A program made the translations under genes and the position numbers. Shown here one piece after another: positions 1-57,307 of a stretch of DNA of 64,000 nucleotides (position 1 is the first letter of the stretch; every line of letters begins with the position of its first letter). Source of the stretch: an uncultured Verrucomicrobiae bacterium (GTDB taxonomy: Bacteria; Chlamydiota; Chlamydiia; Chlamydiales; Rhabdochlamydiaceae); contig CAWFUG010000009.1 of NCBI GenBank assembly GCA_963818965.1, positions 64,001-128,000 of the forward strand, written 5' to 3'. The notes beneath the pieces were generated by a model. That model was not told the origin of the DNA. It saw nothing but the letters and a program-made list of their open reading frames with translations, and did not search any database.

Positions 1-2
1 GT

Positions 3-2242: not shown

Positions 2243-2272
2243 GATACTGTCCCCCTTTGCGGATTATAGAAT

Positions 2273-3094
2273 ATGCGCAGTTTAAGAAAAGCCTTATCTC
2301 TCTTCCTCTTTTTTCTGGCCGCTTGCTCTTCGATGGAGCAATCGGAACAGAAGAAATTGCGTCGGCAAAACGTGCAAAAAGAAAAGATCTACCGTCACCA
2401 CGGAGAGACACGCTACCTGACCTTTGGGTTGCAGCCCAAAGAGCGTGCGAAATATCCCTGGGAGATGACCCATAGCGGCAAACACCTCAAAATTTCGAAG
2501 GAATTTTTCCGTTGCAAAGGCTCGAGCTTAAACCCTCCCCACACCGATGCAAAAGATCCCGCTCACTCTTTCGATTGTGTCGGCTCTCAGAGGCATTCGC
2601 TTCCGATGCGCGAGAACCGAGAATTCATCTATCCCATCTTGATCGATTTGCTCAACTACGTGCAGGCAAAGACGGAGTGCAAAGTAATCGTCACCTGTGG
2701 CCATCGCTGTCCTGCACACAACAACTATTCCGATAGTAGCTCCTATAATCGCGATTCGAAACACATGATCGGAGCGGAGGTGGATTTTTACGTGCAGGGG
2801 ATGGAACATCGCCCTGAAGAGATCGTGCGTCTCATCATGGACTATTACCGAGAGGATAAAGACAAGAACTACGTCGAATTTCGACGGTTCGAAAGAGACA
2901 CAATGAACATCTCCACGCCTCCTTGGTACAATAAGGAGATCTTCGTGAAACTCTATAAGAAAAATGAAGGGCGGGATTTCGATAATCGCCACCCTTATCC
3001 CTATTTGTCCATACAGGTGCGGCACGACCGGGAACGGAACGAATCTGTCACCTGCGACTGGCAAAAGGCCTTTAACGGCTACTGCCGTTATTAA
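2273..3094 (+). CDS. Lipoprotein with peptidase M15-like (Zn D-Ala-D-Ala peptidase-type) domain
   Basis: Lipobox FLAAC. VTCGHRCPAHN...SKHMIGAEVDF matches the M15 SxHxxGxAxD pattern. Confidence 0.6.
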   Translation: MRSLRKALSLFLFFLAACSSMEQSEQKKLRRQNVQKEKIYRHHGETRYLTFGLQPKERAKYPWEMTHSGKHLKISKEFFRCKGSSLNPPHTDAKDPAHSFDCVGSQRHSLPMRENREFIYPILIDLLNYVQAKTECKVIVTCGHRCPAHNNYSDSSSYNRDSKHMIGAEVDFYVQGMEHRPEEIVRLIMDYYREDKDKNYVEFRRFERDTMNISTPPWYNKEIFVKLYKKNEGRDFDNRHPYPYLSIQVRHDRERNESVTCDWQKAFNGYCRY

Positions 3095-3151
3095 CCACAG
3101 AAAGGGGAAACCACAGAGAGAAAATTCATATTTAAATTTCTTCTCTGTGGT
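3094..3151. repeat. Family E (ACCACAGAG) palindromic repeat, copy E1
   Basis: accacagaaaggggaaaccacagagag...ttctctgtggt, filling the gap between two convergent stop codons. Confidence 0.85.
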
Positions 3152-3159
3152 AAAACCTA

Positions 3160-3576
3160 TTAATGTCCGCCGCAGCAGCCGCCGGTGTGCATCTTCTGTT
3201 GGACTACCTCGACGAGTTGGAGTTGGTTTCCATCGATGTCAGAGACTGTCTGCATGCGTACATGTCCTGGGACCGTTACAATTTCGCCGCACAGTTTTGC
3301 CCCTTTTTCCATGAGACCCTGTACTGCTTTGTCGAGATCTTTGACGGTGAAGGTCATCACAGCATTAGGTCCAATGTAAGGACAGCTAGGATCTTCCTGA
3401 GCTTGTTTCTGCCCAATCCCTAAGCGCGCGCCTCCCTTTTGTCCAGAAAGCTCAGCCCATCCATATTGCTCATTAAATTCGACGAGTTTGAGACCGATCA
3501 CATCGGTGTAAAACGCGATCGCTTTTTTGATGTCTTCGACCATGATCCATGCTAAATCAAAAGATTCTGCGCTCAT
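3160..3576 (-). CDS. VOC/glyoxalase family protein
   Basis: VEDIKKAIAFYTDVIGL, FTVKDLD and DIDGNQLQL motifs. Start taken at MSAESFD. Confidence 0.85.
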   Translation of the reverse strand: MSAESFDLAWIMVEDIKKAIAFYTDVIGLKLVEFNEQYGWAELSGQKGGARLGIGQKQAQEDPSCPYIGPNAVMTFTVKDLDKAVQGLMEKGAKLCGEIVTVPGHVRMQTVSDIDGNQLQLVEVVQQKMHTGGCCGGH

Positions 3577-3680
3577 CTTAAATCCTGTATAAAAAATTTT
3601 CCAGAAGATCATGTTTGCACAAAACCCCTTTCTTTTAAAAGAAGAAAAAATTACTTTCACCTCCAAGAAAGGAGCTCATT

Positions 3681-6518
3681 ATGTCGTGGAACACCTTGAA
3701 ATCGTTGGGAAAAGAGAAAAAATATTCCTACTATTCCCTTCCGGCTCTCCAGGAAGCACTAGGAGTTAAGATCGATAGGCTACCCATTTCGATCCGGATC
3801 ATGCTCGAATCCCTCTTGCGCAACTGCGACGGCAAGCGCGTGCGCGAAGAAGATGTCAAGCGGCTAGCGCACTGGAATCCCCAAAAACCCGACAGCGGAG
3901 ATGTGCCCTTCGTCGTCTCGCGTGTCATCCTTCAAGACTTTACAGGAGTGCCCCTTCTCGTCGACCTCGCGGCGATGCGCGATGGCGCAGCTTCTCAAAA
4001 GGCCAATCCCAAAAAAGTGGAGCCGGTCGTCCCCGTCGATCTCATCATCGACCATTCCGTCCAGGTCGATCGCTCCGGGACCAAAGACGCCTTTTTATTC
4101 AATTTAGAGATCGAATTTCAAAGGAATAAGGAGCGCTATGAGTTCCTCAATTGGGGAGAAAAGGCGTTTGAGACCTTCAAAGTAGTCCCTCCGGGAATCG
4201 GCATCTGCCATCAGGTCAATTTAGAATACTTGGGAGAGGTTGTCACAGAATCCAAAGAAACAGCGCTTCTCTATTTCGATACGCTCGTCGGTACCGATTC
4301 ACATACGACGATGATCAATGGCCTTGGGATCTTGGGTTGGGGCGTCGGAGGGATCGAGGCGGAATCGGCGATGCTCGGGCAGCCCTATTTTTTCCAGACG
4401 CCAGAAGTGATCGGTGTCCATCTGACGGGAAAGCTCAATGAAGGAGTGACGGCAACAGATCTCACGTTGCGCATCACAGAGCTCTTGCGCAAAGAAAAAG
4501 TCGTCGGAAAATTCGTCGAATTCTTCGGAGAGGGAGCCGAGACTTTAAGCGTCGCTGATCGCGCGACCATTGGAAACATGGCTCCGGAATACGGCGCGAC
4601 GATCGGCTTTTTCCCGGCCGACGAAAAGACTTTACAGTACCTCGCGATGACAGGACGTTCTTCTGAGCACATCGCTTTAGTTAAGGAGTATCTAGAAGCG
4701 CAAAAGATGTTCGGCATCCCCAAAAAAGGAAGCGTCGACTTTACTAAAGAGGTCTCACTCGATTTAAAGACGATCCAGCCTTGTGTCTCTGGCCCCAAAC
4801 GCCCACAAGATCGAGTCGATCTGCGTCAATTAAAAGAGCGATTCGACCACCTCTTTAATGCCCCTGTACCTGAAGGCGGCTACGGAAAAACCCACCAAGA
4901 GCGGAAACGACCTGTCGTCGTCCATTCAGAAGGGACATTTCATCCCTCGCAATCCCACATCAACGGAGGAACAAAGACCCTCCCTCCTGACACAGCAGCG
5001 CTCTGGAGCGAAGATGAGATGGTCAACAATCGCCCGATGACAGATGAAGTGATCAATCCCGGTTATACGCAGCACCATTCCAGCGATTTCGTTCTCGATC
5101 ACGGCTCCGTCGTCATTGCCGCAATCACCAGTTGTACCAATACGAGTAACCCCAGCGTCATGCTCGCAGCGGGACTTTTGGCCAAAAAGGCAGTGGAAAA
5201 GGGGCTATCGATCCATCCGCGGATCAAGACGAGTCTCGCACCAGGATCCCGCGTCGTGACCGATTATCTCAACCAGACGGGGTTGCAAAAATACCTCGAT
5301 GCCCTCGGCTTTCAACTCGTCGCCTACGGCTGCACCACCTGTATCGGTAACAGCGGCCCTTTGGACGAGAGCATCGAAAAAGCGATTAAAGACAACGACC
5401 TCATCGTCGCAAGCGTCCTCAGCGGCAATCGGAACTTCGAAGCGCGGATTCACGGCGCTGTCAAGGCCAACTTCCTCATGTCGCCCCCACTCGTCGTTGC
5501 GTTCGCATTGGCAGGGAGAATCGACATCGACCTCGATAAAGAACCCCTTGGCTTTAATAAAGAAGGAAAACCCGTCTACCTCAAAGAGATCTGGCCGACA
5601 AATGAAGAGATTCACACCGTCGTTACTGCGGGGGTAACCCCAAAGATGTTTAAAGAGCGCTATGCCCATGTCACGACAGACAACCCCCTCTGGAGCCAGA
5701 TTGAAGTCAAAGGGGCAGAGCGTTACCAATGGGATCCGATGAGCACCTACATCCAATGCCCTCCCTTTTTCGATGACTTCTCCAAAGAGCTCCCCAAGAG
5801 AAAAGAGCTCACTAAAATGCGCCCTCTCGCTCTCTTTGGCGACTCGATCACGACGGACCACATCTCCCCTGCAGGCGCCTTTAAGGCAGATACCCCCGCT
5901 GGGAAATACTTGATCGAACTCGGCATCAAAGAACCCGATTTCAACAGCTACGGCAGCCGTAGAGGCAACCACCATGTCATGATGCGCGGCACCTTTGCCA
6001 ACGTCCGGATCCGCAACCTCATGGTTCCTGGCAAAGAAGGAGGCATCACTCGCCTCATGCCAGAAGGGAGAGAAATGCCCATCTTCGACGCCTGTGGTGT
6101 CTACGCAGAGCGAAACGTCCCTCTGATCATCTTCGCAGGAAAGGACTACGGGATGGGGAGCTCGCGCGACTGGGCTGCCAAAGGGACAGCGCTCCTCGGC
6201 GTGCGCGCTGTCGTCGCCCAGAGCTTCGAAAGGATCCACCGCAGCAACCTCGTCGGTATGGGCGTCTTGCCTCTGCAGTTCCCCAAAGAGGATCAAAGCT
6301 TCGAAACGCTTGGGATTAAGGGAGATGAGATCTTTTCTCTCAAGGGCTTAGAGGGAACCCTCAAGCCTCATCAAGAGGTTATCCTAGAAATCGACCGCGG
6401 CGGGGGTAAAATCGAGCACGTTCCCCTCATTGCCCGCCTCGACACCCCCATCGATATCGAGTACTACCTGCACGGAGGAATCCTCCCTTATGTCCTTCGG
6501 CAGCTGCTGGGAACGTAA
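3681..6518 (+). CDS. acnA: Aconitate hydratase A
   Basis: [38 protein letters not shown] and [10 protein letters not shown] motifs. Confidence 0.97.
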
Positions 6519-6606
6519 AATCTCTTTGCAGATTATTGCTCTGGCTCGCTATAATCCGCGTCACTTTCAATGCTACGCCCTTACAACCTAAGGGCAGCAC
6601 ACACAT

Positions 6607-6689
6607 GCCGGTGTGGCGGAATGGTAGACGCGGTAGATTCAAAATCTACTTCTAGCAATAGAGTGCTGGTTCGAGTCCAGTCACCGGTA
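6607..6689 (+). tRNA. tRNA-Leu(CAA)
   Basis: Acceptor GCCGGTG/CACCGGT, anticodon arm GTAGA-TTCAAAA-TCTAC, long variable arm, GGTTCGAGTCC T-arm. CCA is not encoded. Confidence 0.95.
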
Positions 6690-6922
6690 TTCTCCCTCGA
6701 TGGGATTCAAATCCCAGATTTTCATCACCTTCGTTTTCAGCTCCATAATAACCCAAGTTCTTGATAATCAAGGTTTTGTGCTTAAAATGCTGATTTTTGC
6801 AAAAAAGCAATGTTTTAAACCCCTGTTTTGTTTCTGTTTTTAATAAAGATTGTTTGATATTTAATTGCATTGTGTTAAAATTAGTATAAGATTTAATGCA
6901 TTAAGTTAATTACAGGTTATTT

Positions 6923-7837
6923 ATGTCTTGTACGTTTGGTCTCAATAAAAATGAGCAGTTTTTCTTCGTAAAGTTTCTGAATGGGGAAATGGGTCGACTA
7001 GAGCAGAAGGATTTTAGAAAATTGAGCGGTCCACAAGATCGTAAGTTTGTGTCGGAGGCTTTTGATAAAATAAACAGTATCTTGGACGACAATGTGCAGC
7101 GTTTGCTGCAGCCAGATCCAAAGCTTGGTTATGATGGTGTAGCAAAGGTGATAACGATGCTAGCTCCACAATCCGGGACTATAGCCGAAACGGTGTTTGA
7201 TCAAATGGTCAATGGTCAAGAGCAAGGCGTCGGGAATCGGATGGATAGTTTCTTTTCTAGCGGGATAGGAACTAACGCCCTGGTTACAACACGGGATGCT
7301 ATCCAGAAGAAGATCCCACTAACGCAAACCACAACTACGACGACAACGACGACGACAACAGTTCCCAAAGCTCGAAGAACAGAAGATGTGCCGTTACAAG
7401 AAGAGACCCACTTTATTATTCTCCGCGAGAATGATATGGATCAATTTAGCTTCTTGATCGAACGCTTAGGAAAACTGCACACCCACATAACAAGGGCTTG
7501 TGACGATGCGAAAGAAAGCCCACAGTTTGTGGCTTCTCAACTTCGCACCATAAAAGAATTAGATCAGCTGATTCGAAACTTGGTCAACGCACAAAGTGAC
7601 GAAAGGAAAGTAAAGCTCCCTCTTCGGCTACAAGAGTACATTAGCGCAGTGGAGGCTAATGTTAAGGAATGCGTTGAAGACCTTGACTCACGCCAAGAGT
7701 TTGAGATAGTAAGCGAGCACCCTTCGGAACTTAATACTTTATTATTACTTTTAGGCGAATCGAATGTAATTATGCAGCAAGTGATACAGCTCATAGATCT
7801 GTTGCGCAAACGAGATGAGTTAGGTGTGTCGCAATAG
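6923..7837 (+). CDS. Hypothetical protein with poly-Thr tract (candidate effector)
   Basis: 304-aa ORF with an AT-rich upstream region, a central Thr run and a helical C-terminus. No family recognised. Confidence 0.7.
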   Translation: MSCTFGLNKNEQFFFVKFLNGEMGRLEQKDFRKLSGPQDRKFVSEAFDKINSILDDNVQRLLQPDPKLGYDGVAKVITMLAPQSGTIAETVFDQMVNGQEQGVGNRMDSFFSSGIGTNALVTTRDAIQKKIPLTQTTTTTTTTTTTVPKARRTEDVPLQEETHFIILRENDMDQFSFLIERLGKLHTHITRACDDAKESPQFVASQLRTIKELDQLIRNLVNAQSDERKVKLPLRLQEYISAVEANVKECVEDLDSRQEFEIVSEHPSELNTLLLLLGESNVIMQQVIQLIDLLRKRDELGVSQ

Positions 7838-7884
7838 ATTTGTTTTGTGTTTATTTTAATTTATATTAATTAAATGGTTGTTTT

Positions 7885-9783
7885 ATGAATGGTTTGTTAG
7901 ACAGTGTATACGGCCGTGAGATGTGTTGTTTCTTGCGTCATCTCCTCGAGAATGGAAAGGATGGAATGAATGATATTCAAGTTAATCATTTCCAAATTTT
8001 AGAGCACGAGCAACGTCTTGTCGCCACCGTCGCGCTTAATAAACTGAGTTCTTTGGTAAGGGGAGCGCCTACGCTGCAGGATCTGCACGACTATTTAGCT
8101 GAGGCGGAAGTTAAGGTTTTTGGGCCCTACCAGCGAGGAATGGATACGCTGTTGTACACCCAATTAAGGCAGAGCTGTACTGATAAAGAACTTCTATTCG
8201 CTCGGGGTATTGCCTTGTTAAGCGGCGGAGTTAGTCAGGATGGCTATATAGCCGGCAAGAAGCTCATGCAGCAGTTGGATACTCTAAGAGGACAAATTGA
8301 ACAACTGAAGCTAGAACCTCAGATAGAACAGCCTAAAGCGTCATTTGAAAGAGCAAAATCACTCGGGCTGAGTGAATCGAAAGCGGATCAGCTTCAGAAA
8401 CAAATCCAATCATTAAAACAAGTGTTATGCGCTATCGAGGATCTGTGCAAATACGAGCGAAATGGTTATGCGCGATGTTGTGTGAGCTTAATCCTTGAAC
8501 AACTCGAGATTTTGGAACGAGAGCACGGTTTGCAGTTACCTCTCAGTAACGGAGGGTCACAAGAAAGGGAACTTCTCTTTGAGGCTGGACCACAGTTGCT
8601 TGAATGTGCAGAAGCGCTACTTCAAGAAATAGCGGACTTAGCTGGCTCATCAGAAAAAAATCCTCTTGTTCAGATCCGTCAATCCGCTAACTATATGATG
8701 CTCCAGCTATGTGCGCTCAGTAAAGCTGTCGGCGCTGAATTCCAGCCGGAAAGGCAATTTTTGGATGTTCCTGCTATTTCACCACAAGTTGTGGAGCAGT
8801 TTCTAGGATCAGGTTCTGAGCACACAACAACAACTACTACAACGCAGCCATCGCCACCACTATCTAGAATACCAGTACCCTCTAGAGCATCACTCCCAGC
8901 AGCGCCCCCACCGCCTTCTAGGAGAACGCAAACAACAACTACGACGACCACAACGCAGCCCGCATCCCCATTACCACCTGCTAGAGGATCACTCCCAGCA
9001 GCGCCCCCACCGCCTTCTAGGAGAACGCAAACAACAACTACGACGACCACAGCACAGCCCGCATCCCCATTGCCACCTGCTAGAGCATCTCTCTCAGCAA
9101 CGCCCCCACCGCCCCCTAAGAGATCGCAGGTACCTCCTTCTAGGCCATCCTTTCGACCACCAGCACCTCCATCCCCTGAAACACCCGCAGAACCGCTCCA
9201 GCCCCTTAGACCGTCAAAGCATACACCGCATTTTAAAAAGCGTATCGTTGAGGCACAACACATCGAGCAACTCGTCTCTTGCAAGAAGCAGCTAAAAGAG
9301 CTGTGTGAGCAAATGGATGAGATCAATCAGGTAGAGGTGGCGCAGTTGCTCAAAAAGCTGTCTGAGCAGACAGATGAGGTAAATCCGTTAGAAATTGACC
9401 AACTTCAGTGTGAAGGGAGGGCTCTTTTTACCTATGCCTCCCTGTTGTACAAGTGGCTTGATCGATTCATTCCCAGTGATGAAGTAAATGATAGAGAGAT
9501 GAGACTTCACGAGAGCGATTGGGATTATATCTCTCAATTTAATGAAGAAAAAATGTTTGCAGTGGAACAACAGATTAGGAAAGAATTTTTTGGAAGCGAA
9601 AAGAGAATGGATGCTCTTCCTGTCTATGATTATGTGGAAATAAGAAATGATGATGATGACGATTTTAGCACTATGGTCTCTGTCAAGGAATTAAAAGAAG
9701 AAACTAGAGCTGCTATAGCTAAGACATTCAATTTATTAGAAAAAGAATTCTTTTCCTTTTTGCTTCCTTCCCATCAACAATAA
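7885..9783 (+). CDS. Hypothetical Pro/Thr-rich repeat protein (candidate effector)
   Basis: 632-aa ORF with helical ends and a central Pro/Thr repeat linker. Confidence 0.75.
   Translation: MNGLLDSVYGREMCCFLRHLLENGKDGMNDIQVNHFQILEHEQRLVATVALNKLSSLVRGAPTLQDLHDYLAEAEVKVFGPYQRGMDTLLYTQLRQSCTDKELLFARGIALLSGGVSQDGYIAGKKLMQQLDTLRGQIEQLKLEPQIEQPKASFERAKSLGLSESKADQLQKQIQSLKQVLCAIEDLCKYERNGYARCCVSLILEQLEILEREHGLQLPLSNGGSQERELLFEAGPQLLECAEALLQEIADLAGSSEKNPLVQIRQSANYMMLQLCALSKAVGAEFQPERQFLDVPAISPQVVEQFLGSGSEHTTTTTTTQPSPPLSRIPVPSRASLPAAPPPPSRRTQTTTTTTTTQPASPLPPARGSLPAAPPPPSRRTQTTTTTTTAQPASPLPPARASLSATPPPPPKRSQVPPSRPSFRPPAPPSPETPAEPLQPLRPSKHTPHFKKRIVEAQHIEQLVSCKKQLKELCEQMDEINQVEVAQLLKKLSEQTDEVNPLEIDQLQCEGRALFTYASLLYKWLDRFIPSDEVNDREMRLHESDWDYISQFNEEKMFAVEQQIRKEFFGSEKRMDALPVYDYVEIRNDDDDDFSTMVSVKELKEETRAAIAKTFNLLEKEFFSFLLPSHQQ
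8882..9115 (+). repeat. In-frame 99-nt (33-aa) tandem repeat, about 2.3 copies
   Basis: ctagag(c/g)atc recurs at 8882, 8981 and 9080. The unit is SLPAAPPPPSRRTQ(T)nQPASPLPPAR. Confidence 0.9.
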
Positions 9784-20098: not shown

Positions 20099-20268
20099 TA
20101 TACCCCTTCCACCTCAATCGTAACCACAAGCAAACCGATTAAAAGCCTCAAATTTCGAATCAAAGGGAGGGGGTTAATATTAATTCAATATTACCCCCTC
20201 CCTTTGATTCGAAATTTGAGAACTTTTCATTCGGTTTTCTTGGGTACGATTGAGGTGGAAGGGGTATA
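20099..20268. mobile_element. Family A palindromic MITE-like element, copy A2
   Basis: Terminal inverted repeats tataccccttccacctcaatcgta / tacgattgaggtggaaggggtata, with a long central stem. Confidence 0.9.
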
Positions 20269-20430
20269 TCCACGTGGGTGTATAACCATTTCTCTCTTCA
20301 TCATTCATATCATTACATCATTCCTACCATTTCCTTGCCTTGCGTTCAAAAAAACTTACCAAGATCCTGGTTTTGTCTTGTAATCGAAGAACAAACACTT
20401 GCTTTTAGAAAAAATCCCTGGCAATTTGGA

Positions 20431-20597
20431 TATACTGCGCCCGGTCAGGAATTGCGAATTTGAGCAGCGTGAAAGCTCCCGCGATTCCACGATCGAAAAG
20501 AGGGCCTGTATTTCCTCAATACTGGCTCCCTTTTCGATCGTGGAATCCCGGGGCTTATGTACCGGTCAAATTCGCAATTCCTGACCGGGCGCAGTAT
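20431..20597. mobile_element. Family B palindromic element, copy B1 (about 167 nt)
   Basis: atactgcgcccggtcaggaattgcgaatttga / tcaaattcgcaattcctgaccgggcgcagtat inverted repeat, plus an inner gattccacgatcg/cgatcgtggaatc stem. Confidence 0.88.
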
Positions 20598-20618
20598 TGT
20601 TATCAAGGTGTAGAACAC

Positions 20619-22625
20619 ATGCTCAGAGAGACTTTGGCTCCTTTGATCGAGCGATTGAAGGGATGTACGGATAAGCAAGAGCGGATGGCATTGCTCGATC
20701 GAGAGAACGGGGCGTGGGAGCAGCTTTCTGCTCTTGGGGAGCCGTTTGATTTTGATCGGGAATGGGTTTTAAAATCACTACTCTTCATCGGGCAGGCAGA
20801 CCACTTGTTCAGATTGAACAGGGGTCAGCTGGAAGAGGTTCTCGATACACTGATCCCCGTCGACGTGTTTTATCGGCAGATAGGGGGTATTGTCGGATAC
20901 CACGCGATGATGCTCTCTCTGCTTACGAGTGAAGAGCACAGCTCTAAAAAAATCGAAGGGAATTTCTTGCGCCCTCCGGGAATTGCTATCTCTAACGAAA
21001 CAGCAGAGGTGAGGCGTTACACCATGGAGGGGCTCCGTGCTCTGCCGCAGATGGCTGAGATGTATCCTGTCGGAGGGGCTGCAGATCGATTGAGGTTTTG
21101 CGATCCTGTGACGCAAGTGCCGCTTCCCGCAGCGAAGCTTCCCTTTTGCGGGCGGACGCTTTTGGAGGGGTTGATTCGAGATGTCGTAGCGCGGGAGTAT
21201 TTGTATTACAAGTTGTTTGGTGAACAACTCATCACGCCGATTGCGATGATGACATCGCATGAAAAGGACAACCATTGTCAAATTGTCCGCCTGTGTGAAG
21301 AGCGGGCGTGGTTTTCTCGACCGAAGGACTCCTTTCGATTTTTCTCTCAGCCACTCGTTCCGACGATGGATGCATTGGGGCGATGGTGTAGGAGCGAATC
21401 GGGTGGGTTTTTAATGAAGCCAGGGGGGCATGGAGTCTTGTGGAAGGCTGCAGAAGATGCCGGGATTTTCGATTGGTTGGGGGCCCTAGGCAGAGGCAAG
21501 TTGCTCGTGCGGCAAATCAACAATCCGATCGCGGGGATCGATCATAGCCTGCTGACATTTTGTGGGGTGGGTATTTCTGAGCAGAAAGAGTTCGGCTTTG
21601 CCTCTTGTCCGCGCCAGACGCAATCGGCAGAGGGGATGAATGTCCTCATCGAGAAAAATGATTCTGAGTACTGCTTGACCAATATCGAGTACTGCGACTT
21701 CAAGCGGTTTGACATCGAAGATGTCCCAGTGAATGCAGAGAGCGCTTATTCCCGGTACCCATCTAACACCAATATCCTCTTTGCTGACATCGGGGCCATT
21801 CGGGAGAAGATCGCAGTTTGTCCGCTTCCAGGGATGCTTCTCAATTTCAAAAAGATGAGTTTTTTCGATGCCTTGGGAAACCCTCTCGAAGGGCCGGTGG
21901 CCCGTCTCGAGTCGATGATGCAGAATATCGCTGACCATTTCGTCGCTCCCAATCTCTCTCTGCTGACGACTTTTTTGACATACCAACACCGCAGAAAGAC
22001 GATTTCCACAGCGAAACGGGAATTTCAAGAGGGAGGGTCCCTATTAGAAACTCCAGAAGGGTGTTATTTCGAGCTGTTGCAAAATGCTCATGAGCTATTG
22101 ACTCAGGGGTGCCGTTTTATCCTTCCTGATTTCTATTTGGCTGAGGACTACCTAAAAAAAGGACCCAACGTTCTCTTTCACTATCATCCCGCGTTAGGGC
22201 CTCTCTACGAGATCATCGCGCAAAAACTCCAAGGAGGTTCTTTGGCAGAAGGGAGTGAATTAGAGCTTGAAATCGCAGAGATTCAGGTGCGCAATCTCTC
22301 TTTAAAAGGCTCTTTGCGCGTGGTAGCGACTCATCCGGTGCAAGATTTGGAGGGGCGTTATTCAAGCCGTGTAGGCAGATGTGAGTTGATCGATGTCGTC
22401 ATCGAAAATGAAGGGATCGATCGGAGCGCTGCGAATTGTTATTGGAAGAGAGAGGTTACCCGTAAAGAGGTCTGCTCGATTCTCATCCACGAAGATGGAG
22501 AATTCTATGCGCACGGTGTGGTGTTAAAAGGGAATTTTCAGATTGAAGTGCCTCCAAGAACGCGTGTGACGCTCTTGCCCACAGAGGGTGGAGGTTTTAC
22601 TCAACTTTTGAATCCAATTGGATAA
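20619..22625 (+). CDS. UTP--glucose-1-phosphate uridylyltransferase family (UGP3-like)
   Basis: YPVGGAADRL, KPGGHG, VRQINNP, TNIEY, PSNTN and RLESMMQNIAD motifs. Start taken at MLRETL, downstream of element B1. Confidence 0.8.
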   Translation: MLRETLAPLIERLKGCTDKQERMALLDRENGAWEQLSALGEPFDFDREWVLKSLLFIGQADHLFRLNRGQLEEVLDTLIPVDVFYRQIGGIVGYHAMMLSLLTSEEHSSKKIEGNFLRPPGIAISNETAEVRRYTMEGLRALPQMAEMYPVGGAADRLRFCDPVTQVPLPAAKLPFCGRTLLEGLIRDVVAREYLYYKLFGEQLITPIAMMTSHEKDNHCQIVRLCEERAWFSRPKDSFRFFSQPLVPTMDALGRWCRSESGGFLMKPGGHGVLWKAAEDAGIFDWLGALGRGKLLVRQINNPIAGIDHSLLTFCGVGISEQKEFGFASCPRQTQSAEGMNVLIEKNDSEYCLTNIEYCDFKRFDIEDVPVNAESAYSRYPSNTNILFADIGAIREKIAVCPLPGMLLNFKKMSFFDALGNPLEGPVARLESMMQNIADHFVAPNLSLLTTFLTYQHRRKTISTAKREFQEGGSLLETPEGCYFELLQNAHELLTQGCRFILPDFYLAEDYLKKGPNVLFHYHPALGPLYEIIAQKLQGGSLAEGSELELEIAEIQVRNLSLKGSLRVVATHPVQDLEGRYSSRVGRCELIDVVIENEGIDRSAANCYWKREVTRKEVCSILIHEDGEFYAHGVVLKGNFQIEVPPRTRVTLLPTEGGGFTQLLNPIG

Positions 22626-24354: not shown

Positions 24355-24411
24355 TATACCCCGGGGCTTTCACGCAGCTCAAATGCACCATCCTCAAGCG
24401 CGCGGAGTATA
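24355..24411. repeat. Family D/B hybrid short element
   Basis: tatacccc...ggagtata ends. The left part is the reverse complement of the B arm (gcgtgaaagc) and the right part matches D at 28330. Confidence 0.75.
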
Positions 24412-25418: not shown

Positions 25419-25532
25419 AAAGTTTTGGCCGATTTTCGATTTTTTTGGCATGCGTATATTACCCCTGCCAAAAAAATCGAAAATCGGCCAAAATAACTCC
25501 GAAAATTGACGAAAACGTTTTACTGGGATAGG
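25406..25532. repeat. Family F palindromic element
   Basis: Outer inverted repeat cctatccccgtaaaa / ttttactgggatagg, with a perfect 28-bp inner stem at 25423-25493. Confidence 0.8.
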
Positions 25533-26715: not shown

Positions 26716-26788
26716 CTTCCCTCTCTGTGGTTTCCCTTCTCTGTGGTAATTTTTCTACCACAGAGAGGGGAAACCACAGAGAGGGAAG
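26716..26788. repeat. Family E repeat, copy E3 (arms in swapped order)
   Basis: cttccctctctgtggtttccc...ggggaaaccacagagagggaag, between convergent genes. Confidence 0.85.
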
Positions 26789-26809
26789 GGATTGTATGCA
26801 AGGCAGGCT

Positions 26810-27634
26810 CTAACGCATATCGATAATATCGAAATGGGACTCGTCGTCCGCATCGCTGGAGATAGGGGAGGAGGAGGAATCAGAAGTCTCTTTGGAATAA
26901 AGGGGAGAGCTGGATTCCGCATCGCCGTTACTCTCACTCTCTGTGCTTAGAAGAAGAGGATCGGAAAACGTACTGTCATCTGCGTAATCGGGAGAACTCG
27001 ACCGCGCAGGGCATAGAAGAGGCTCGAAAAGCGCGTTGCCATAGGGATCTACATAACCAGTGAAATTGAACGGGCGCACCGCATCGGCATCGCTGGATGC
27101 TGAGGAGAATTCAGAGAACTCCTCTTTAGGGTTAGTTTCATCAGTTGTGTTTTGCGCGTGCTTTTTCTTGAGTTCAATAAAATGAATTGTGTCTTCGACC
27201 TTGTCTAAAAGGAATTCATTTAATTCGTTTTTGTTTAGCAGTGCTTTTTCGCTTTGTGTATTATCAGTGAATATATTGAGCACGTAATCTTGCACCTGAG
27301 TCCAAATCTCCAAATCTTCTTCTTGCACATTTTCTTTTTCTCTAGTCGGAGCGGTCAATTTGGCGTATAGCTCTGCGCCACCCACTTGATACTCAGATTC
27401 TCCTAAGTTAGGAATTGTGAATTGAGAGCCCACATAGGTATCTGTGCCAAAGGTAGCGGTCAGTTTTGCATAGTTAGGCAATACATTCATAAATGCGCAG
27501 AAGGTGCGAAGCTCAGGTTCATTTAATTGTTCCACATTTTTTAGAGAAAAATTTGGAATGCAATTTTTGCTTACATCTTCTTCCAGTAGATTGTAAAAAA
27601 CCTGACCTTGATTTAGTTCGTTGTTTATGGACAT
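26810..27634 (-). CDS. Hypothetical protein with acidic Ser-rich tail (paralog pair member)
   Basis: Shares an N-terminal domain (VFYN...EQL...EYxVGGAELYAKLT) with 27665-28204. Confidence 0.75.
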   Translation of the reverse strand: MSINNELNQGQVFYNLLEEDVSKNCIPNFSLKNVEQLNEPELRTFCAFMNVLPNYAKLTATFGTDTYVGSQFTIPNLGESEYQVGGAELYAKLTAPTREKENVQEEDLEIWTQVQDYVLNIFTDNTQSEKALLNKNELNEFLLDKVEDTIHFIELKKKHAQNTTDETNPKEEFSEFSSASSDADAVRPFNFTGYVDPYGNALFEPLLCPARSSSPDYADDSTFSDPLLLSTESESNGDAESSSPLYSKETSDSSSSPISSDADDESHFDIIDMR

Positions 27635-32026: not shown

Positions 32027-32081
32027 CGCTCAATCCTTTGGTTAAAAACACTTATATAACAAAAACGTTACACCCAAACAA

Positions 32082-32116
32082 GCTCAAATTCGCAATTCCT
32101 GACCGGGCGAGGTATA
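32082..32116. repeat. Family B half-element
   Basis: gctcaaattcgcaattcctgaccgggcgaggtata matches the B1 arm. Confidence 0.75.
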
Positions 32117-32132: not shown

Positions 32133-32259
32133 CATGATCTAGTTCCCCATCAGTCTGTTCTGAATATACGCAATTTCACCACAGAGGGGGAAACCACAGA
32201 GGAGAAATTTTTAAATATGAATTTCCTCTCTGTGGTGAAACTCAACTATTTATGCAACA
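32133..32259. repeat. Family E repeat, copy E4
   Basis: tttcaccacagagggggaaaccacagag...ctctgtggtgaaa, with flanks shared with E2 and E5. Confidence 0.85.
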
Positions 32260-35613: not shown

Positions 35614-37472
35614 ATGCGAAAAAACCCAAACTACCTCGCTTTCGTGCCGAAGCTCTTTACCTGTCTTTTTCAGGAGCCTTACAATTGGCACATGTTGAGA
35701 AAAGATCTCCTTGCGGGGGCTACAGTAGGGGTCGTAGCTCTTCCCTTGGCGATGGCATTCGCGATCGCATCGGGGGTCCCCCCAGAAAAGGGACTCTATA
35801 CAGCCATCATCGCGGGATTTTTGATCTCATTATTCGGAGGGAGTCGAGTACAGATTGGAGGGCCGACGGGCGCCTTTGTCGTCATCGTCTATAGCATTGT
35901 CCAAAGGCAGGGGTATGAGGGGCTCCTCCTGGCTACTTTGCTTGCTGGAGTGATCCTTCTCATCGCCGGATTTGCGCGCTTAGGCACGTTGATTAAATAC
36001 ATCCCCTACCCGTTAGTGACGGGGTTCACCTCCGCGATTGCCCTCATCATCTTCTCCTCTCAGGTCAAAGATTTTTTCGGACTGCGATTAACTGAAGTTC
36101 CCGCCGATTTTCTTTCGAAGTGGAAGGCTTTTTTTCAGGCGGCAGGGACGGGAGATCTGTGGACTTTAGGGGTGAGTGCTTCGACTCTTGCGCTGATTCT
36201 CTTCATCCGCCGATTTTTTCCGAAGATTCCTTGGGGAATCGTCTCCATCGGCGTAATTACTCTTCTCGTCGCTTTGTTCCACATTCCTGTCGAGACGATT
36301 CAGAAGCGCTTTGGAGAGATTCCACACATGTTGCCGACACCCGGGCTTATACCCCACTCGGTCAGAAACTTGGAATTTGGGCTGCGTGAAAGCTCCCGCG
36401 ATTCCACGATCGGGGAGGGGGCCAGTATTGAGGAAATACAGGCCCCTGCCCCGATCGTAGAATCCCGGGGGTTTGACGCGCCCAAATTCCAAGTTTCTGA
36501 CCGAGTGGGGTATACCCCTTTTTCTTGGGATTTCGCGAAGTTGCAGCAACTCTTTCCCGATGCGATGACGATCGCTTTACTCGCTGGAATAGAATCGCTC
36601 CTCTCTGCGGTGGTCGCCGATGGGATGATCGGGGGCGCCATCGATCGAACTGCGAACTCATCGCTCAGGGACTTGCTAACATCGGCTCTTGTTTTTTTGG
36701 AGGCATCCCTGCCACAGGGGCGATCGCTCGGACGGCTGTCAACATTAAGTCGGGCGGGAGAACTCCGATTGCTGGGATCGTGCATGCGGCCACGCTGCTT
36801 CTGATCATTTTGATGCTCTCTCCTGTCGTTAGCCTCATTCCCTTGGGCGGTCTGGCCGCTGTGCTCGTCATGATCTCCTGGGATATGAGTGAAATCAAAC
36901 GATTCCGCCGCCTGTTTCAGGCGCCAGCAGGAGATATCGCTGTTTTACTGACCACTTTTTTCCTGACTATTTTCATCGATTTATCGGTTGCTGTCGCCAT
37001 CGGGATGATCCTCGCAGCCTTTCTCTTCATCAGGAGAATGAGCGAATTATCCAAGGTCGTTCCGATGACCTCCCTGATGAAAGAGGATGAGGAGGAGATA
37101 GAAGACCCCGATGCGATTTCCAACAAAACAATCCCTGCCTTAGTAGAGGTGTATGAGATCGATGGGCCTTTCTTTTTCGGGGTTGCAGACAGCCTGCAAA
37201 ACCTGCTATTCCAGTTGGAAAAGCCTCCCAAAGTCTTCATTTTGCGGATGCGAAAAGTTCCCGTGATCGATGCCTCTGGACTGCATGCCTTAAATGAATT
37301 TTACGATCGCTGTATGAAACGGGATACGCAATTGATCTTATCAGGAGTACGCCGGGAACTCTACAACTCGATCCAGCAATATGGGATTGAGAAAAAAATT
37401 GGCCAGAAAAATATCGTCTCCCATATCGATGCGGCTCTAAGGCGCGCCGAAGATCTCCTCAAATCTGTTTAG
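35614..37472 (+). CDS. SulP family anion transporter with STAS domain (in-frame palindromic insertion and a 1-nt frameshift at 36631-36635)
   Basis: KDLLAGATVGVVALPLAMAFAIASG, GGPTGA, ELIAQGLAN, ATGAIART, GPFFFG and IDASG motifs, split over two frames. Confidence 0.92.
36348..36514. mobile_element. Family B palindromic element, copy B2, inserted in frame in SulP
   Basis: Perfect inverted repeat tataccccactcggtcagaaacttggaatttgggc / gcccaaattccaagtttctgaccgagtggggtata. The length is 167 nt, i.e. 165 plus a duplicated TA. Confidence 0.92.
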
Positions 37473-38420: not shown

Positions 38421-38476
38421 GCGCGGCCCTACGGGCAACTTTTGAGTCTACTTGGCTATAAGCGCGCGGGGTATAT
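38421..38476. repeat. Composite of a family C half and a family D end
   Basis: gcgcggccctacgggcaacttttgagtctacttggctata joined to agcgcgcggggtata. Confidence 0.7.
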
Positions 38477-41960: not shown

Positions 41961-42024
41961 TATACCCAAGTGGACTCAAAATTTGGCCGTAGGGCCGCGC
42001 CAAATTTTGAGTCCACTTGGGTAT
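41961..42024. mobile_element. Family C palindromic element
   Basis: atacccaagtggactcaaaatttggc / gccaaattttgagtccacttgggtat perfect inverted repeat. Confidence 0.85.
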
Positions 42025-42097
42025 GAAATAAAAAAACTTAAAACTTGCTCCTTTTTCTTTCAATGGGTATTTTTCTCATTTTCATAGGCGGGTAGGG

Positions 42098-48424: not shown

Positions 48425-49539
48425 GCCGATTCTCCTGTTTGTTTCTCATTTCAGTGATTGTCTTGTTTGCGCTCGGGCTCGTCATGATTTTCAATACGAG
48501 TTCGGCGGAGGTTCTCGATCGCTTTCTCGATAAGAGCACCCATCACGCTCTGATCAAGCAGATGCTCTACTCTCTTGTAGGGGGAGTGGGGGCGATCGGA
48601 ATCTGGTTCATCGGGTATCAAAACCTCCTGAAGCTCAGCGGTCCCTTGCTCGTTTTAGGCACCCTTTTACTCATCTCAGTATTCGTTCCTGGAATCGGTC
48701 AGCAGATCAATGGGGCACATCGCTGGATCAGTCTCTTCGGCAATTCCTTACAGCCCTCAGAATTCGTGAAATTTCTCGTGCCGCTCTATTACATCCACTG
48801 CGTGACGTGCGTGCAAGGTCCTCTACCTCTAAAGTCTTTACTCAAGCTTTTAGGGAAACTCACTATCCCGCTGGGATTAATCCTCATCGAGCCCGATAAT
48901 GGGACTGTCTTTATCGTATTGATGACGATGCTCATGCTGTTCATTTTGACGCGAATGAGAATTCTCTATTGGGCGGTTCCTCTCTTTGTCCTTTGCTTAG
49001 GCGGAGGGATCGTCTCTCTGCGCATGCCGCATGTCTCTGATCGGATCCATATCTATTTGCATCCAGAGTCTGATTTAAAGGGAAAAGGACATCAACCTTA
49101 TCAGGCTAAAATTGCGACAGGTTCAGGCGGTTTATTTGGAAAAGGGTTAGGGGAGAGTTTGCAGAAGCTCGAATACCTGCCCGAGGCGCGCAGTGATTAC
49201 ATCGCCGCTATCTTTGCAGAGGAATGCGGCTTTGTAGGGATGTGCGGTTTGATCTGTCTTTACCTGTTGATCGCCTATGCGGGATTTTCGATTGCGCAGC
49301 GCGCTTCTTCTGTTGAGGGATTTTATACCGCAGCTACGGTGACTTTTTTGATCTGTTTTCAGGCATTTTTAAATCTCGGCGTCGTCTCTGGCTTATTGCC
49401 GAGTAAGGGGACGAATCTCCCTTTTTTCAGCCAAGGGGGATCTTCGTTACTCGCTAACCTCTTAGCCTGTGCTCTGATTCTCAATATTGCAAAACCTTCA
49501 TACGCACTGAAAGTTCAAGGGAAAACTTATGGAGATTAA
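48421..49539 (+). CDS. ftsW: SEDS peptidoglycan polymerase
   Basis: NGAHRWI, LQPSEFVK, YLPEARSDYI and LPFFSQGGSS motifs, in dcw context. Confidence 0.92.
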   Translation: MSRFSCLFLISVIVLFALGLVMIFNTSSAEVLDRFLDKSTHHALIKQMLYSLVGGVGAIGIWFIGYQNLLKLSGPLLVLGTLLLISVFVPGIGQQINGAHRWISLFGNSLQPSEFVKFLVPLYYIHCVTCVQGPLPLKSLLKLLGKLTIPLGLILIEPDNGTVFIVLMTMLMLFILTRMRILYWAVPLFVLCLGGGIVSLRMPHVSDRIHIYLHPESDLKGKGHQPYQAKIATGSGGLFGKGLGESLQKLEYLPEARSDYIAAIFAEECGFVGMCGLICLYLLIAYAGFSIAQRASSVEGFYTAATVTFLICFQAFLNLGVVSGLLPSKGTNLPFFSQGGSSLLANLLACALILNIAKPSYALKVQGKTYGD

Positions 49540-51991
49540 AATTCTTTTTGCCGCAGGAGGGACAGGAGGTCATCTCTTTCCCGCACAAGCGCTCGCTCAA
49601 CAGTTAGAAGAGGCGGGACTTCACGTTTTTTTTGCTGGGGTCGGACTAGATAAGACGGAGTATTTCAATCGCTTGCAGTTCTCTTACCAGGCAGTAGAGG
49701 GAGGAACACCGGCGCGTGGGAGTTTTTGGAAGAGGCTCTCTGGGATCGCTCAGTTGGTAAGAGGGGTCAGGCGGAGTCTAAAAATCCTCTCCAAAGAGCG
49801 GCCCAAACTCGTGATCGGCTTTGGGAGTTTTCACGCCTTCCCTGTCTTATGCGCCGCATTTTTCAAACGGGTCCCTATCGTCTTATTCGAATCGAATGCC
49901 GTCCCTGGCAAGGTCGTGCGCCTCTTTTCTCGATTTGCAAAAGTGACAGCTCTCTATTTTCCCGAAGCAAAGCGCTTTCTTGGAAGCAAGACCATCTCCA
50001 CGCAGATCCCCTCTACAAAGGTCTATTCTCAATTAGCAGCAGAAGCAGCGCGCCAAAAACTGGGATTACACCCTGATCCCTTTACGTTGCTCGTCTTCGG
50101 CGGCTCCCAAGGGGCTAAAGCGCTCAATGACCTGATCCTCTCCCTTTTGCCACAACTGAAACAAAAGGGATTAGAACTTCAGCTGATCCACTTTACGGGC
50201 AATGAAGAGAGGGCAGAGGAGATCCGGCTCCTGTGCCAAACTTTAGGCATTCCGGCCTATGTGAAAAAATTCGAAACGCATATGGACGTCGCCTGGAGCG
50301 CTGCAGATCTCGTCCTTTGTCGTTCAGGTGCTGCAACCCTATCAGAGATGATTCACTACGCGGTTCCGGGAATCCTCATTCCTTATCCTTACGCTGCCGA
50401 TCGACACCAGACAAAAAATGCGGAGGTCATCGCTAACCTAGTGGGTGGAGCGAAAATCGTAGAGGAGGGGACTGCGTTTACAGAGCGCGTTTTAGAAAAG
50501 ATCGAGCCGCTAGTGGCTCTCGCGTCTCTCGAGCGCAAACAGATGCAAAGAGCCCTACAGATTTATCCACTTAAAGAGAAAAGAGAAAGCCTTGCCTCTC
50601 TTGTGCTTAAATCCCTGGATCTCACTCCGCCAACGCACCTCTCTGTACCAGAGACCTATCACTTCATCGGCATTGGGGGAATCGGAATGAGCGCCCTCGC
50701 ACAGATCCTCTTGCAAAAAGGGGAACCAGTCAGCGGAACAGATCTCAATCCTTCTCCCTTGACAGAAGTGCTCAAAGCACAAGGTGCCTTGGTAGCATCG
50801 ACCCACGCTAAAGAGCACGTCCCGAGAAGAGGCTCTATCATCTACAGCACAGATATCAAGGAAGGCAACCCCGAGATCGAACAAGCAAAAGTTTACGATC
50901 TAAAAATACTCCACCGCTCAGAGCTCCTTCGAGAGCTCATGCGCGCTTATCGGCCCCTGTTGGTTTCAGGGACGCATGGGAAGACGACCACCTCTGCCCT
51001 CTTGAGTCATCTGCTCGTTGTAACGGGCAGGGAGCCTAGTTTTGCCGTCGGAGGGATCGTCAAGAGCTTGAAGAGTAACGGGGGGTATGGCAAGGGAGAT
51101 TATTTCGTCGCAGAGGCGGATGAGAGCGACGGATCTTTTCTCAACTACTCTCCCTTTGGCGCCATCGTGACCAATTGCGACGGTGATCACCTCGATCACT
51201 GGAAAACAGAGGAAGCCTTGCACCAAGGCTTTGCTCAATTCGCTCAAAAGGTCCACTCTTCAGAGCACCTCTTTTGGTGTGGCGATGACCCTGCTTTATG
51301 CGCGTTGGGGCTCAAAGGCACAGCTTATGGGTGGGGAGAAAATAACGGATTACGCATCCTCTCCGCGCGCCAGGAAGGATGGAAAAATCTCTTTTCTGTA
51401 TCGTTCGAAGGTAAATCCTATGAATCGATCGAACTTCCCCTCATCGGTGCCCACAATGTCCTCAACGGAGCCGCTGTCTTTGGGATGGGGCTACGCCTCG
51501 GGTTGTCAGAAGACTTAATCCGTGAAGCCTTCCTCACATTTCAAGGAATTGCGCGTCGGGCGGAGTACAAGGGAAATGTGGGGACTGTCCCCATCTTCGA
51601 CGATTACGCGCATCATCCTACAGAAATTGAGACGACATTAAACGGCTTGAAGCGGGCAATCGATAACCAGCGGCTCGTCGTCGTCTTTCAACCCCATCGC
51701 TACACACGCACGCGCGACTGCTTTGAAGCGTTCGGCCCAGCCTTGCAAGGAGCAGATCTCTTAGTATTAACCGATATCTACGCAGCACGCGAAGCCCCCA
51801 TCGAAAACATCACCATCGAAACGCTCATTCAAAAGATCCAAGAGCAAACGGGTAAACAGGTCCACTACGCCCCGCGCTCTTTTTTAAGTCGCTTTGTCAG
51901 CGGAAAATTGACCCCAGAAGATGTCGTCGTCACTCTCGGGGCCGGAGACATCACAAAATTGGGCAGTGAGCTGCAAAATGAAGAGATCTAA
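49529..51991 (+). CDS. murG-murC: MurG-MurC fusion protein
   Basis: N-half has AGGTGGHLFP, FGGSQGA and CRSGA (MurG). C-half has FIGIGGIGMS, GTHGKTTT, EADESD, DDYAHHP and FQPHRY (MurC). Single 820-aa ORF. Confidence 0.9.
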   Translation: MEIKILFAAGGTGGHLFPAQALAQQLEEAGLHVFFAGVGLDKTEYFNRLQFSYQAVEGGTPARGSFWKRLSGIAQLVRGVRRSLKILSKERPKLVIGFGSFHAFPVLCAAFFKRVPIVLFESNAVPGKVVRLFSRFAKVTALYFPEAKRFLGSKTISTQIPSTKVYSQLAAEAARQKLGLHPDPFTLLVFGGSQGAKALNDLILSLLPQLKQKGLELQLIHFTGNEERAEEIRLLCQTLGIPAYVKKFETHMDVAWSAADLVLCRSGAATLSEMIHYAVPGILIPYPYAADRHQTKNAEVIANLVGGAKIVEEGTAFTERVLEKIEPLVALASLERKQMQRALQIYPLKEKRESLASLVLKSLDLTPPTHLSVPETYHFIGIGGIGMSALAQILLQKGEPVSGTDLNPSPLTEVLKAQGALVASTHAKEHVPRRGSIIYSTDIKEGNPEIEQAKVYDLKILHRSELLRELMRAYRPLLVSGTHGKTTTSALLSHLLVVTGREPSFAVGGIVKSLKSNGGYGKGDYFVAEADESDGSFLNYSPFGAIVTNCDGDHLDHWKTEEALHQGFAQFAQKVHSSEHLFWCGDDPALCALGLKGTAYGWGENNGLRILSARQEGWKNLFSVSFEGKSYESIELPLIGAHNVLNGAAVFGMGLRLGLSEDLIREAFLTFQGIARRAEYKGNVGTVPIFDDYAHHPTEIETTLNGLKRAIDNQRLVVVFQPHRYTRTRDCFEAFGPALQGADLLVLTDIYAAREAPIENITIETLIQKIQEQTGKQVHYAPRSFLSRFVSGKLTPEDVVVTLGAGDITKLGSELQNEEI

Positions 51992-53049: not shown

Positions 53050-53162
53050 TGCAATTTCACCACAGAGATGGAAAACCACAGAGAGGAAATTCATATTAAA
53101 AAATTTCCTCTCTGTGGTTTTCCATCTCTGTGGTGAAATTCAGCTATTTATGCAACAACGCC
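53050..53162. repeat. Family E repeat, copy E5 (most complete)
   Basis: Perfect 39-bp inverted repeat at 53053-53091/53102-53140. Confidence 0.92.
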
Positions 53163-56630: not shown

Positions 56631-56664
56631 GAGAAAATCCTTAAAAGATAAAATACGGTGGGTA

Positions 56665-56834
56665 TATAGCCCTTCCACCTCAATCGTAACCACAAGCAAA
56701 CCGATTAAAAGCCTCAAAATTCGAATCAAAGGTCGGGGTCAATATTGAATTTAATATTGACCCCGACCTTTGATTCGAATTTTGAGAACTTTTCATTCGG
56801 TTTTCTTGGGTACGATTGAGGTGGAAGGGGTATA
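56665..56834. mobile_element. Family A palindromic element, copy A3
   Basis: Same arms as A2, with a perfect 34-bp central stem carrying compensatory changes. Confidence 0.9.
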
Positions 56835-56892
56835 TGCCCAAGTGGACTCAAAAGTTGGCCCTACGGCCCACTTTTGAGTCCACTTGAGTATA
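56833..56892. mobile_element. Family C palindromic element abutting A3
   Basis: tatgcccaagtggactcaaaag...cttttgagtccacttgagtata. Confidence 0.85.
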
Positions 56893-56981
56893 GACTCAAA
56901 TTCTCGGTAGATGCTATACCAGAGTCGTTTTTGACATTTAGGAATTGTCCCAGGATCAACTCTAAACTTAAATTTTGAACT

Positions 56982-57212: not shown

Positions 57213-57228
57213 CAACCCTCTTCTTTTT

Positions 57229-57307
57229 CCTTCCCCTCTGTGGTTTCCCATCTCTGTGGTAAACACATTATCACCACAGAGGTGGGAAACCACAGAGGGG
57301 AGGGAAG
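57229..57307. repeat. Family E repeat, copy E6 (arms in swapped order)
   Basis: cccctctgtggtttccca...tgggaaaccacagagggg, between khpA and miaA. Confidence 0.85.

Follow-up and report, generated by a model that had tools for sequence, protein, structure and literature searches.

An in-frame palindromic element in the sulP gene of a chlamydial genome, probably a mobile repeat resembling the Rickettsia palindromic elements

The closest described counterparts of the repeat considered here are the Rickettsia palindromic elements (RPEs), whose families RPE-1 to RPE-10 were reportedly set out by Ogata et al. in 2000 and 2002, and a group of short hairpin elements that includes the Correia elements (CREE) of Neisseria, for which TA duplication is known. 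Our repeat lies inside sulP, a gene of the SulP/SLC26 transporters, at positions 36348-36514 of what we call the window, the whole 64,000-nucleotide stretch of DNA that was analysed (positions 64,001 to 128,000 of contig CAWFUG010000009.1, assembly GCA_963818965.1). At a probability of roughly 0.88, we take it to be a single copy of a palindromic mobile element that is non-autonomous and carries no gene, a MITE (short for miniature inverted-repeat transposable element) that behaves like the RPEs. The genome is chlamydial, as the initial annotation of the window had proposed: the nearest RNase G loci belong to Rhabdochlamydiaceae, Candidatus Rhabdochlamydia or Chlamydiae metagenome-assembled genomes (MAGs).

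In the part of the RPE literature cited here, these elements are about 150 bp long and form ten families, with 44 integrations in Rickettsia conorii genes; each encodes a conserved peptide, and nearly half are in frame with host open reading frames (ORFs) (PMC10969869). A table in a second source gives about 105-146 bp for RPE and about 168 bp for the YPAL/RU-2 repeats, and a passage of its text describes TA flanks on ERIC-type MITEs (PMC3184786).

The element and its host gene comprise the following features of the window.

36348..36514, no strand: family-A palindromic element, 167 nt when the TA on either side is counted and 163 nt (36350-36512) without them
36348..36382, no strand: left terminal arm, 35 nt, opening with the TATAC motif common to family-A copies and complementing 36480-36514
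36480..36514, no strand: right terminal arm, 35 nt
36430..36434, no strand: apex loop GAGGA, with closing stem GTATT/AATAC; the host-frame reading of the central part is ...SIEEIQ...
36349..36513, plus strand, sulP frame: 55 codons added to SulP (IPHSVRN...SDRVGY)
35614..36635, plus strand: N-terminal part of sulP, from the ATG to a G5 run; positions 1-236 of the Pfam Sulfate_transp profile precede the insert
36631..36635, plus strand: the G5 run, one base short relative to all orthologs, where the frame shifts
36636..37472, plus strand: C-terminal part of sulP in the shifted frame, with Sulfate_transp profile positions 273-378 and a STAS domain and no further stops

The element has TATA at both ends, starts with TATACCCCACTCGG and ends with CCGAGTGGGGTATA. 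Its two terminal arms are 100% complementary, and a 183-nt stretch around it is predicted to fold into a single hairpin of -143.8 kcal/mol, compared with -64.0 +/- 4.6 for dinucleotide shuffles (n=200; z = -17.2), none of which was as stable. It has the makeup of a MITE in its size of 163 nt, where the class lies below about 400 bp, in its perfect 35-nt terminal inverted repeats and in containing no transposase gene; the sole open frames are those that read through it.

The host frame, ORF 35614-36804, passes through the element without a stop and encodes the peptide quoted in the initial annotation; excising 165 nt rejoins ...LPTPGL-TPFSWDF, just as that annotation had calculated. A MAFFT alignment with 11 chlamydial SulP orthologs, each from a separate genus of the same family, has a clean 55-column gap between LPTPGL and TPFSWDF in all 11, exactly at the predicted site, and none of these proteins carries a loop of that length, whose presence would have spoken against an insertion. 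The 55-residue segment is also missing from a same-genus relative (G001). When 30 relatives were searched with the N-terminal 343 residues, orthologs matched up to about residue 245 and resumed at about residue 303, never between, and the Pfam Sulfate_transp match before the frameshift covers residues 28-248 only, with nothing matched inside the insert. The identity of this SulP to its orthologs is 54-64%; the protein is present in 13 of 18 family genomes searched, and a search with this SulP query found no second copy in the studied genome (G000). In an AlphaFold2 model of the N-terminal 343 residues, built on a 13-row alignment, helices 207-222 and 307-335 lie on either side of the insert, and most of residues 239-300 score below pLDDT 50. 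The model thus puts the insert, for which it gives no confident fold, in a loop that separates two predicted membrane helices. The initial annotation had further noted ORFs crossing the element in all three minus-strand frames. This holds for two of them (36166-36549 and 36300-36785, both spanning the whole element), while the third, 36362-36661, ends about 15 nt inside the left end; in all, three of the six frames are open across the sulP copy.

The same DNA recurs throughout the genome, which was searched as 2.24 Mb in 12 contigs (87.85% complete) with an nhmmer profile built from 15 full copies. This family, which we call family A, was found at 97 places on 10 of the 12 contigs, intergenic ones included, and in both orientations. 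Thirty-one of these places are at least 160 nt long, 21 of them exactly 167 nt and the others 165-169 nt; the shorter members have lost internal sequence by deletion and retain TATA at both ends. The full copies shown have TATA...TATA or a near variant at their bounds, with no further flank preference visible. Identities among copies range from about 72% to 99%. The sulP copy is 86% identical to its nearest sister, and the 99% pair, C10:15225 and C9:363390, occupies two separate loci, which argues for recent spread. Copy number and this close pair together support the earlier proposal that the palindrome is a mobile repeat. Three further family-A sequences lie within the window.

20431..20597, no strand: second full-length copy, in an intergenic or 5' region immediately upstream of where a UGP3-like gene probably starts
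24358..24411, no strand: short deletion derivative, about 57 nt
32081..32116, no strand: terminal fragment

The family is unusually compatible with coding. Of the six frames, a full-length copy leaves 2.68 free of stops on average, compared with 0.57 in shuffled copies, 0.56 in random perfect palindromes of the same composition and 1.32 in random genomic windows. Forty-one copies reach 140 nt or more, and open frames of 200 aa or longer run across 18 of them. The initial annotation had likened the sulP insert to RPEs and suggested a search of the genome for other in-frame insertions of the peptide; several were found in unrelated genes. Five in-frame copies, counting SulP, have homology on both sides of the insert, and the other four hosts are otherwise intact: AroA (Pfam EPSP_synthase in two stretches around the insert, 365 bits), a RumA-like methyltransferase (TRAM domain before the insert and methyltransferase domain after it), MenC (MenC_N domain split by the insert) and RecC (Pfam homology on both sides). 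For AroA, 16 relatives match both sides of the insert and none matches across it; in one of them (G021) the two matching blocks are 3 nt apart, compared with a 56-residue gap in the query. For RumA, nine close orthologs likewise match both sides and none across. The inserts are confined to the studied genome. About eight weaker in-frame candidates comprise a leucine-rich repeat protein, PepF, a cupin-like protein, two hypothetical proteins (P0001 and P0003, which also exist as called proteins in a public collection), a 300-aa ORF and two N-terminal cases. A third group among the 18 lies probably just upstream of the true start codon, at the UGP3-like, NamZ-like, lon and MiaB-like genes. Among the genes inspected, none was clearly broken by a family-A copy.

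The copies within genes are also read in a common sense. By a tally of translations, the centre is read as the hydrophilic ...SI(E/D)EIQ... in 13 of 14 candidate genic copies, and the same frame is open in most copies. This preference exists although reverse-sense frames are often open (the -2 frame in 23 of the 31 full-length copies), and it suggests selection on the peptide that the insert encodes. Seven gene-caller proteins in the public collection carry the peptide, five from the studied genome and two from other metagenomes. A length divisible by three, together with two to four open frames out of six, would let about half of random genic insertions keep the host frame open; selection might then retain those copies that lie in a loop or at the surface, where the protein tolerates them, and are read in the hydrophilic sense (...RESSRDSTIEKGASIEEIQAP...).

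Insertion would occur at TA dinucleotides, with the TA duplicated. One pair of paralogous loci, 94% identical, includes an empty site: a copy occupies C12:76253-76419, whereas the paralog on C5 lacks it, is 165 nt shorter and has a single TA at the junction. The net gain of 165 nt and the TA at this site agree with the target duplication put forward in the initial annotation, and a 163-nt element plus a duplicated TA would fit the 165 nt, or 55 codons, gained by SulP. A flank-based search of the genome found no further paralogous empty sites. The same pair of paralogs differs by a second, smaller insertion, a palindromic sequence of about 84 nt of the TTTTGGCCGATTTTCG type at C12:76440-76525 that is absent from the C5 copy; a similar hairpin occurs at window positions 25423-25493.

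At what level is the palindrome maintained? In a co-variation count over 23 aligned family-A copies and 70 pairs, 98.7% of cells are paired, and in the terminal helix of 34 pairs the value is 99.2%. Changes on both sides were counted in 33 pairs and 151 cells, against 33.7 +/- 4.5 cells in shuffles, of which 0 of 500 reached the observed count; sliding the 3' partners by 1-3 columns lowers pairing to 29-48%. The extreme ends (TATAC), an AATTTG box and the central core are nearly invariant, and the remaining terminal helix varies yet stays paired. A tally of the per-pair table counts only 12 G-U cells among 1608, and CG-to-GC transversions are numerous among the changes. RNA structure tolerates G-U pairs, whereas a DNA palindrome, symmetric on both strands, would not. 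Because the co-variation is almost purely Watson-Crick, we infer that the arms reflect a constraint on DNA and not on RNA. A mobilising enzyme may recognise the hairpin or cruciform form; alternatively, one arm may serve to correct the other.

The apex loop (alignment columns 79-95) occurs in both orientations, as GTATTGAGGAAATAC in 16 of the 23 copies and as the reverse-complement type in five. This distribution would fit a flip/flop of the apex, as if the loop were inverted by recombination between the arms or by hairpin processing within the element.

No autonomous partner with matching ends, such as a MITE is expected to have, was found in the genome as assembled. IS630 (DDE_3, PF13358) is the classic TA-duplicating insertion sequence (IS) family, and neither its transposase domain nor Y1_Tnp (PF01797) or DDE_Tnp_1_4 (PF13701) had a match. 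Self-BLAST of the genome revealed an IS4/5-like element (DDE_Tnp_1) in three copies and an IS110-like element in two, with ends unrelated to family A. The former is a 1.2-kb IS at C1:260607-261808, C2:149485-150685 and C9:457884-459084; its copies are 99.9% identical, and it looks like a recently active element with ends unlike those of the hairpin families. An IS1380-like transposase occurs in 6 of 121 family genomes, and the seven loci fetched contained no element-like sequence (nhmmer E <= 10). Three candidates were tried and rejected. The apparent solo ends that might have been IS termini are deletion derivatives; C1:65973-66536 consists of two half-elements around 460 nt and has no transposase-sized ORF; and C4:10236-12633, which resembled a 2.4-kb element with matching ends, belongs to a fold-back contig and holds toxin-antitoxin-like ORFs and no transposase. 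The last 8 kb of C12 recurs twice in that 22-kb contig at 99.5% identity, at positions 1-8042 and, in the opposite orientation, at 14818-22227; this could reflect an error of assembly or a replicon whose end is duplicated or forms a hairpin.

Several explanations compete with a mobile element. Family A might be a structured RNA or regulatory signal (a terminator, attenuator, small RNA or processing site) whose coding compatibility is incidental. Such a role would suit the great stability of the hairpin, the many copies just upstream of gene starts, the conservation of core positions 28-140 in 22 of 40 genera sampled and the presence of an RNase III gene. We consider it improbable, however, given the near absence of G-U pairs and the many CG-to-GC transversions, the occurrence of copies in both orientations, the lack of any Rfam family at gathering score (the search gave only microRNA-like chance matches, far below gathering scores) and the failure of a simple scan around the element to find a terminator-like site. 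An assembly artefact, in which a repeat copy was misjoined into sulP, deserves mention since repeats are hard to assemble, but exactly 165 nt are inserted, at a TA, unique sulP sequence continues in frame on both sides, and about a dozen other genes have the same clean geometry. The sulP copy, moreover, is too far from its nearest sister to be a collapsed consensus, and we regard a misjoin as very improbable. Negligible weight is left for the view that SulP has these 55 residues from an acquired protein domain, or as a loop that is ancestral or specific to its lineage, with no mobile DNA involved. The segment is indeed hydrophilic and in a loop, but this view is refuted by the 97-place repeat family and the 11-ortholog alignment, and the absence of the segment from the same-genus relative, the perfect palindrome and the lack of a Pfam match within it stand against it as well.

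The most serious alternative concerns the state of sulP itself. The downstream frameshift that the initial annotation suspected does exist in the assembly: a 1-nt gap, placed by DNA alignment with G001, falls at the G5 run, 117 nt downstream of the element. After ADGMIGG, orthologs read RH(R/K)SNCEL, and in the window this continuation uses the frame of ORF 36525-37472; both domains, Sulfate_transp and STAS, are complete, yet split over two frames. If the shift is real, sulP is recently dead, the element is either neutral in a pseudogene or helped to kill the gene, and its in-frame state is an accident of a length divisible by three. We give this account slightly less than an even chance, the odds between a sequencing error and a real lesion being close to even. 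In its favour, all 12 orthologs have the base that is missing here, no other split gene appeared when 86 window ORFs of 120 aa or longer were scanned with Pfam, so that the assembly is not riddled with indels, and loss of SulP seems tolerable in a family where it was found in only 13 of the 18 genomes searched; nor does a second SulP turn up in the studied genome with this query. On the other side, both halves of sulP are otherwise intact, with 278 stop-free codons after the shift and the level of identity to orthologs given above, and a single-base homopolymer indel is the commonest assembly error. The completeness of 87.85% in only 12 contigs, below that of most few-contig relatives listed, would fit some indel errors, and because other copies occupy intact genes, the in-frame state can be explained without a pseudogene. 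Translation of the sulP copy depends on this frameshift, which is either a sequencing error or a recent inactivation; the frameshift bears on that question and not on the identity of the element, on which the pseudogene account and the mobile-element reading agree.

Some observations weigh against the mobile-element reading in its full form. With sulP frameshifted downstream, its copy may not be translated, and the RNase III that the genome encodes might cleave an mRNA containing a perfect hairpin of 80 bp, in which case being in frame is no guarantee of expression. The AlphaFold2 model, made for a truncated protein, is mediocre (mean pLDDT 67, pTM 0.53). The genome as assembled yielded no cognate transposase, and mobility is deduced from the distribution of copies. 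Finally, the TA duplication is drawn from one paralogous empty site, which has three nearby substitutions, and from the arithmetic of 55 codons.

Related DNA extends beyond this genome. Element DNA matches were found in 50 of 121 same-family genomes and in 22 of 40 genera, mostly to core positions 28-140. The 55-aa peptide had no match at E <= 1e-6 in the 120 other family genomes, and the 55-aa reading so far appears specific to the studied genome and the two proteins from other metagenomes. The exact 25-nt terminal motif had no match in JGI metagenome contigs; a degenerate core motif matched eight of these contigs, with other termini and no autonomous element.

How does family A compare with the systems described above? 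Like the RPEs as portrayed in the cited excerpts, it is a short palindromic repeat without a transposase that has many in-frame copies in unrelated metabolic genes, a conserved encoded peptide and an obligate intracellular host, and its insert positions appear compatible with the host fold. Unlike them, it resides in the Chlamydiota, where kinship in sequence with RPEs is not to be expected, its length of 163 nt exceeds the roughly 105-150 bp given for RPEs, and its hairpin is almost perfect over the full length; it also differs in having a length fixed at a multiple of three once the TA duplication is included, and ends, TATACCC, that it shares with two other families. The element would thus be RPE-like in behaviour and a TA-flanked MITE in anatomy, by analogy with these systems, and not a member of an RPE family, its host being of a different phylum. 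With Correia/CREE, ERIC and the Yersinia YPAL/RU-2 repeats it shares a size of 100-170 bp, terminal inverted repeats, TA at both ends, long hairpins and, according to the portions of the sources used here, occasional intragenic copies with open frames. Those repeats are mainly intergenic, however, and the same portions do not report them as perfect full-length stop-free palindromes.

The REP/BIME sequences associated with RAYT (Y1) proteins are palindromic too, and structure-dependent recognition is plausible for both; REPs, however, are 20-40 nt and extragenic in the excerpt cited (PMC3733652), whereas family-A elements are often intragenic, and the Y1_Tnp domain of RAYT proteins has no match in the studied genome. 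Coding palindromes in the mitochondria of Nematomorpha are, like family A, long perfect inverted repeats in frame with both arms translated, but they are organellar and eukaryotic and, in the section cited, not shown as a dispersed TA-flanked family (PMC6649704). Full-text literature searches, in which most subscription-journal papers were not covered, gave no account of in-frame palindromic elements in Chlamydiota, and in the portion of PMC1590033 consulted Chlamydia figures merely as two genomes in a table. An RPE-like coding MITE is of a known kind, which seems to be unreported in Chlamydiota.

Two other hairpin families accompany family A in the genome, and the end motif TATACCC/GGGTATA is common to all three. 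Family B is a hairpin of about 171 nt (about -119 to -132 kcal/mol) bounded by TATACCCCTTCC...GGAAGGGGTATA and found at 37 places in the genome, in the window at 20097-20269, 12669-12841 and 56663-56835. Family C, a hairpin of about 69 nt beginning TATACCCAAGTGGACTCAAAA..., is found at 44 places, in the window at 41961-42033, 38421-38460 and 56833-56900. A broader reading, which we offer tentatively and think unlikely to hold in every part, is that environmental chlamydiae carry a hairpin superfamily with nothing but the ends TATACCC...GGGTATA in common, represented in this genome by A, B and C and elsewhere by the family-A core in 22 of 40 sampled genera, that its members are recognised and kept as perfect DNA palindromes by a structure-specific mechanism other than a known transposase, and that a stop-free, hydrophilic sense with a length divisible by three has evolved to colonise essential genes. 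Such a mechanism might work by correction or re-synthesis of one arm from the other.

The window holds several other features. A repeat built of ACCACAGAGAG units forms double hairpins at 3094-3153, 16488-16547, 26757-26816, 32177-32236, 53059-53140 and 57227-57306, and one copy on contig C2 adjoins the IS110-like element. An 826-aa frame at 49511-51988 is an apparent murG-murC fusion, with MurG-type (Glyco_transf_28 N and C) and MurC-type Mur ligase domains. Three 99-nt tandem repeats at 8877-9173, 94% and 65% identical to the reference copy, lie in a 637-aa ORF (7870-9780) that has no Pfam match.

For gene models in chlamydial MAGs the practical effect of family A is that its inserts inflate or distort them, through 55-aa low-confidence loops and split Pfam domains; they can also be used to mark strains. 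Co-variation restricted to Watson-Crick changes, together with the end motif common to three families, points to a structure-dependent mechanism of mobilisation. More broadly, the element extends selfish DNA inside protein genes from Rickettsia to a second, unrelated obligate intracellular lineage, which suggests convergent evolution of coding-compatible mobile hairpins where intergenic space is scarce. If the superfamily reading were true, these hairpins would give chlamydial proteins a steady supply of new 55-residue surface loops.

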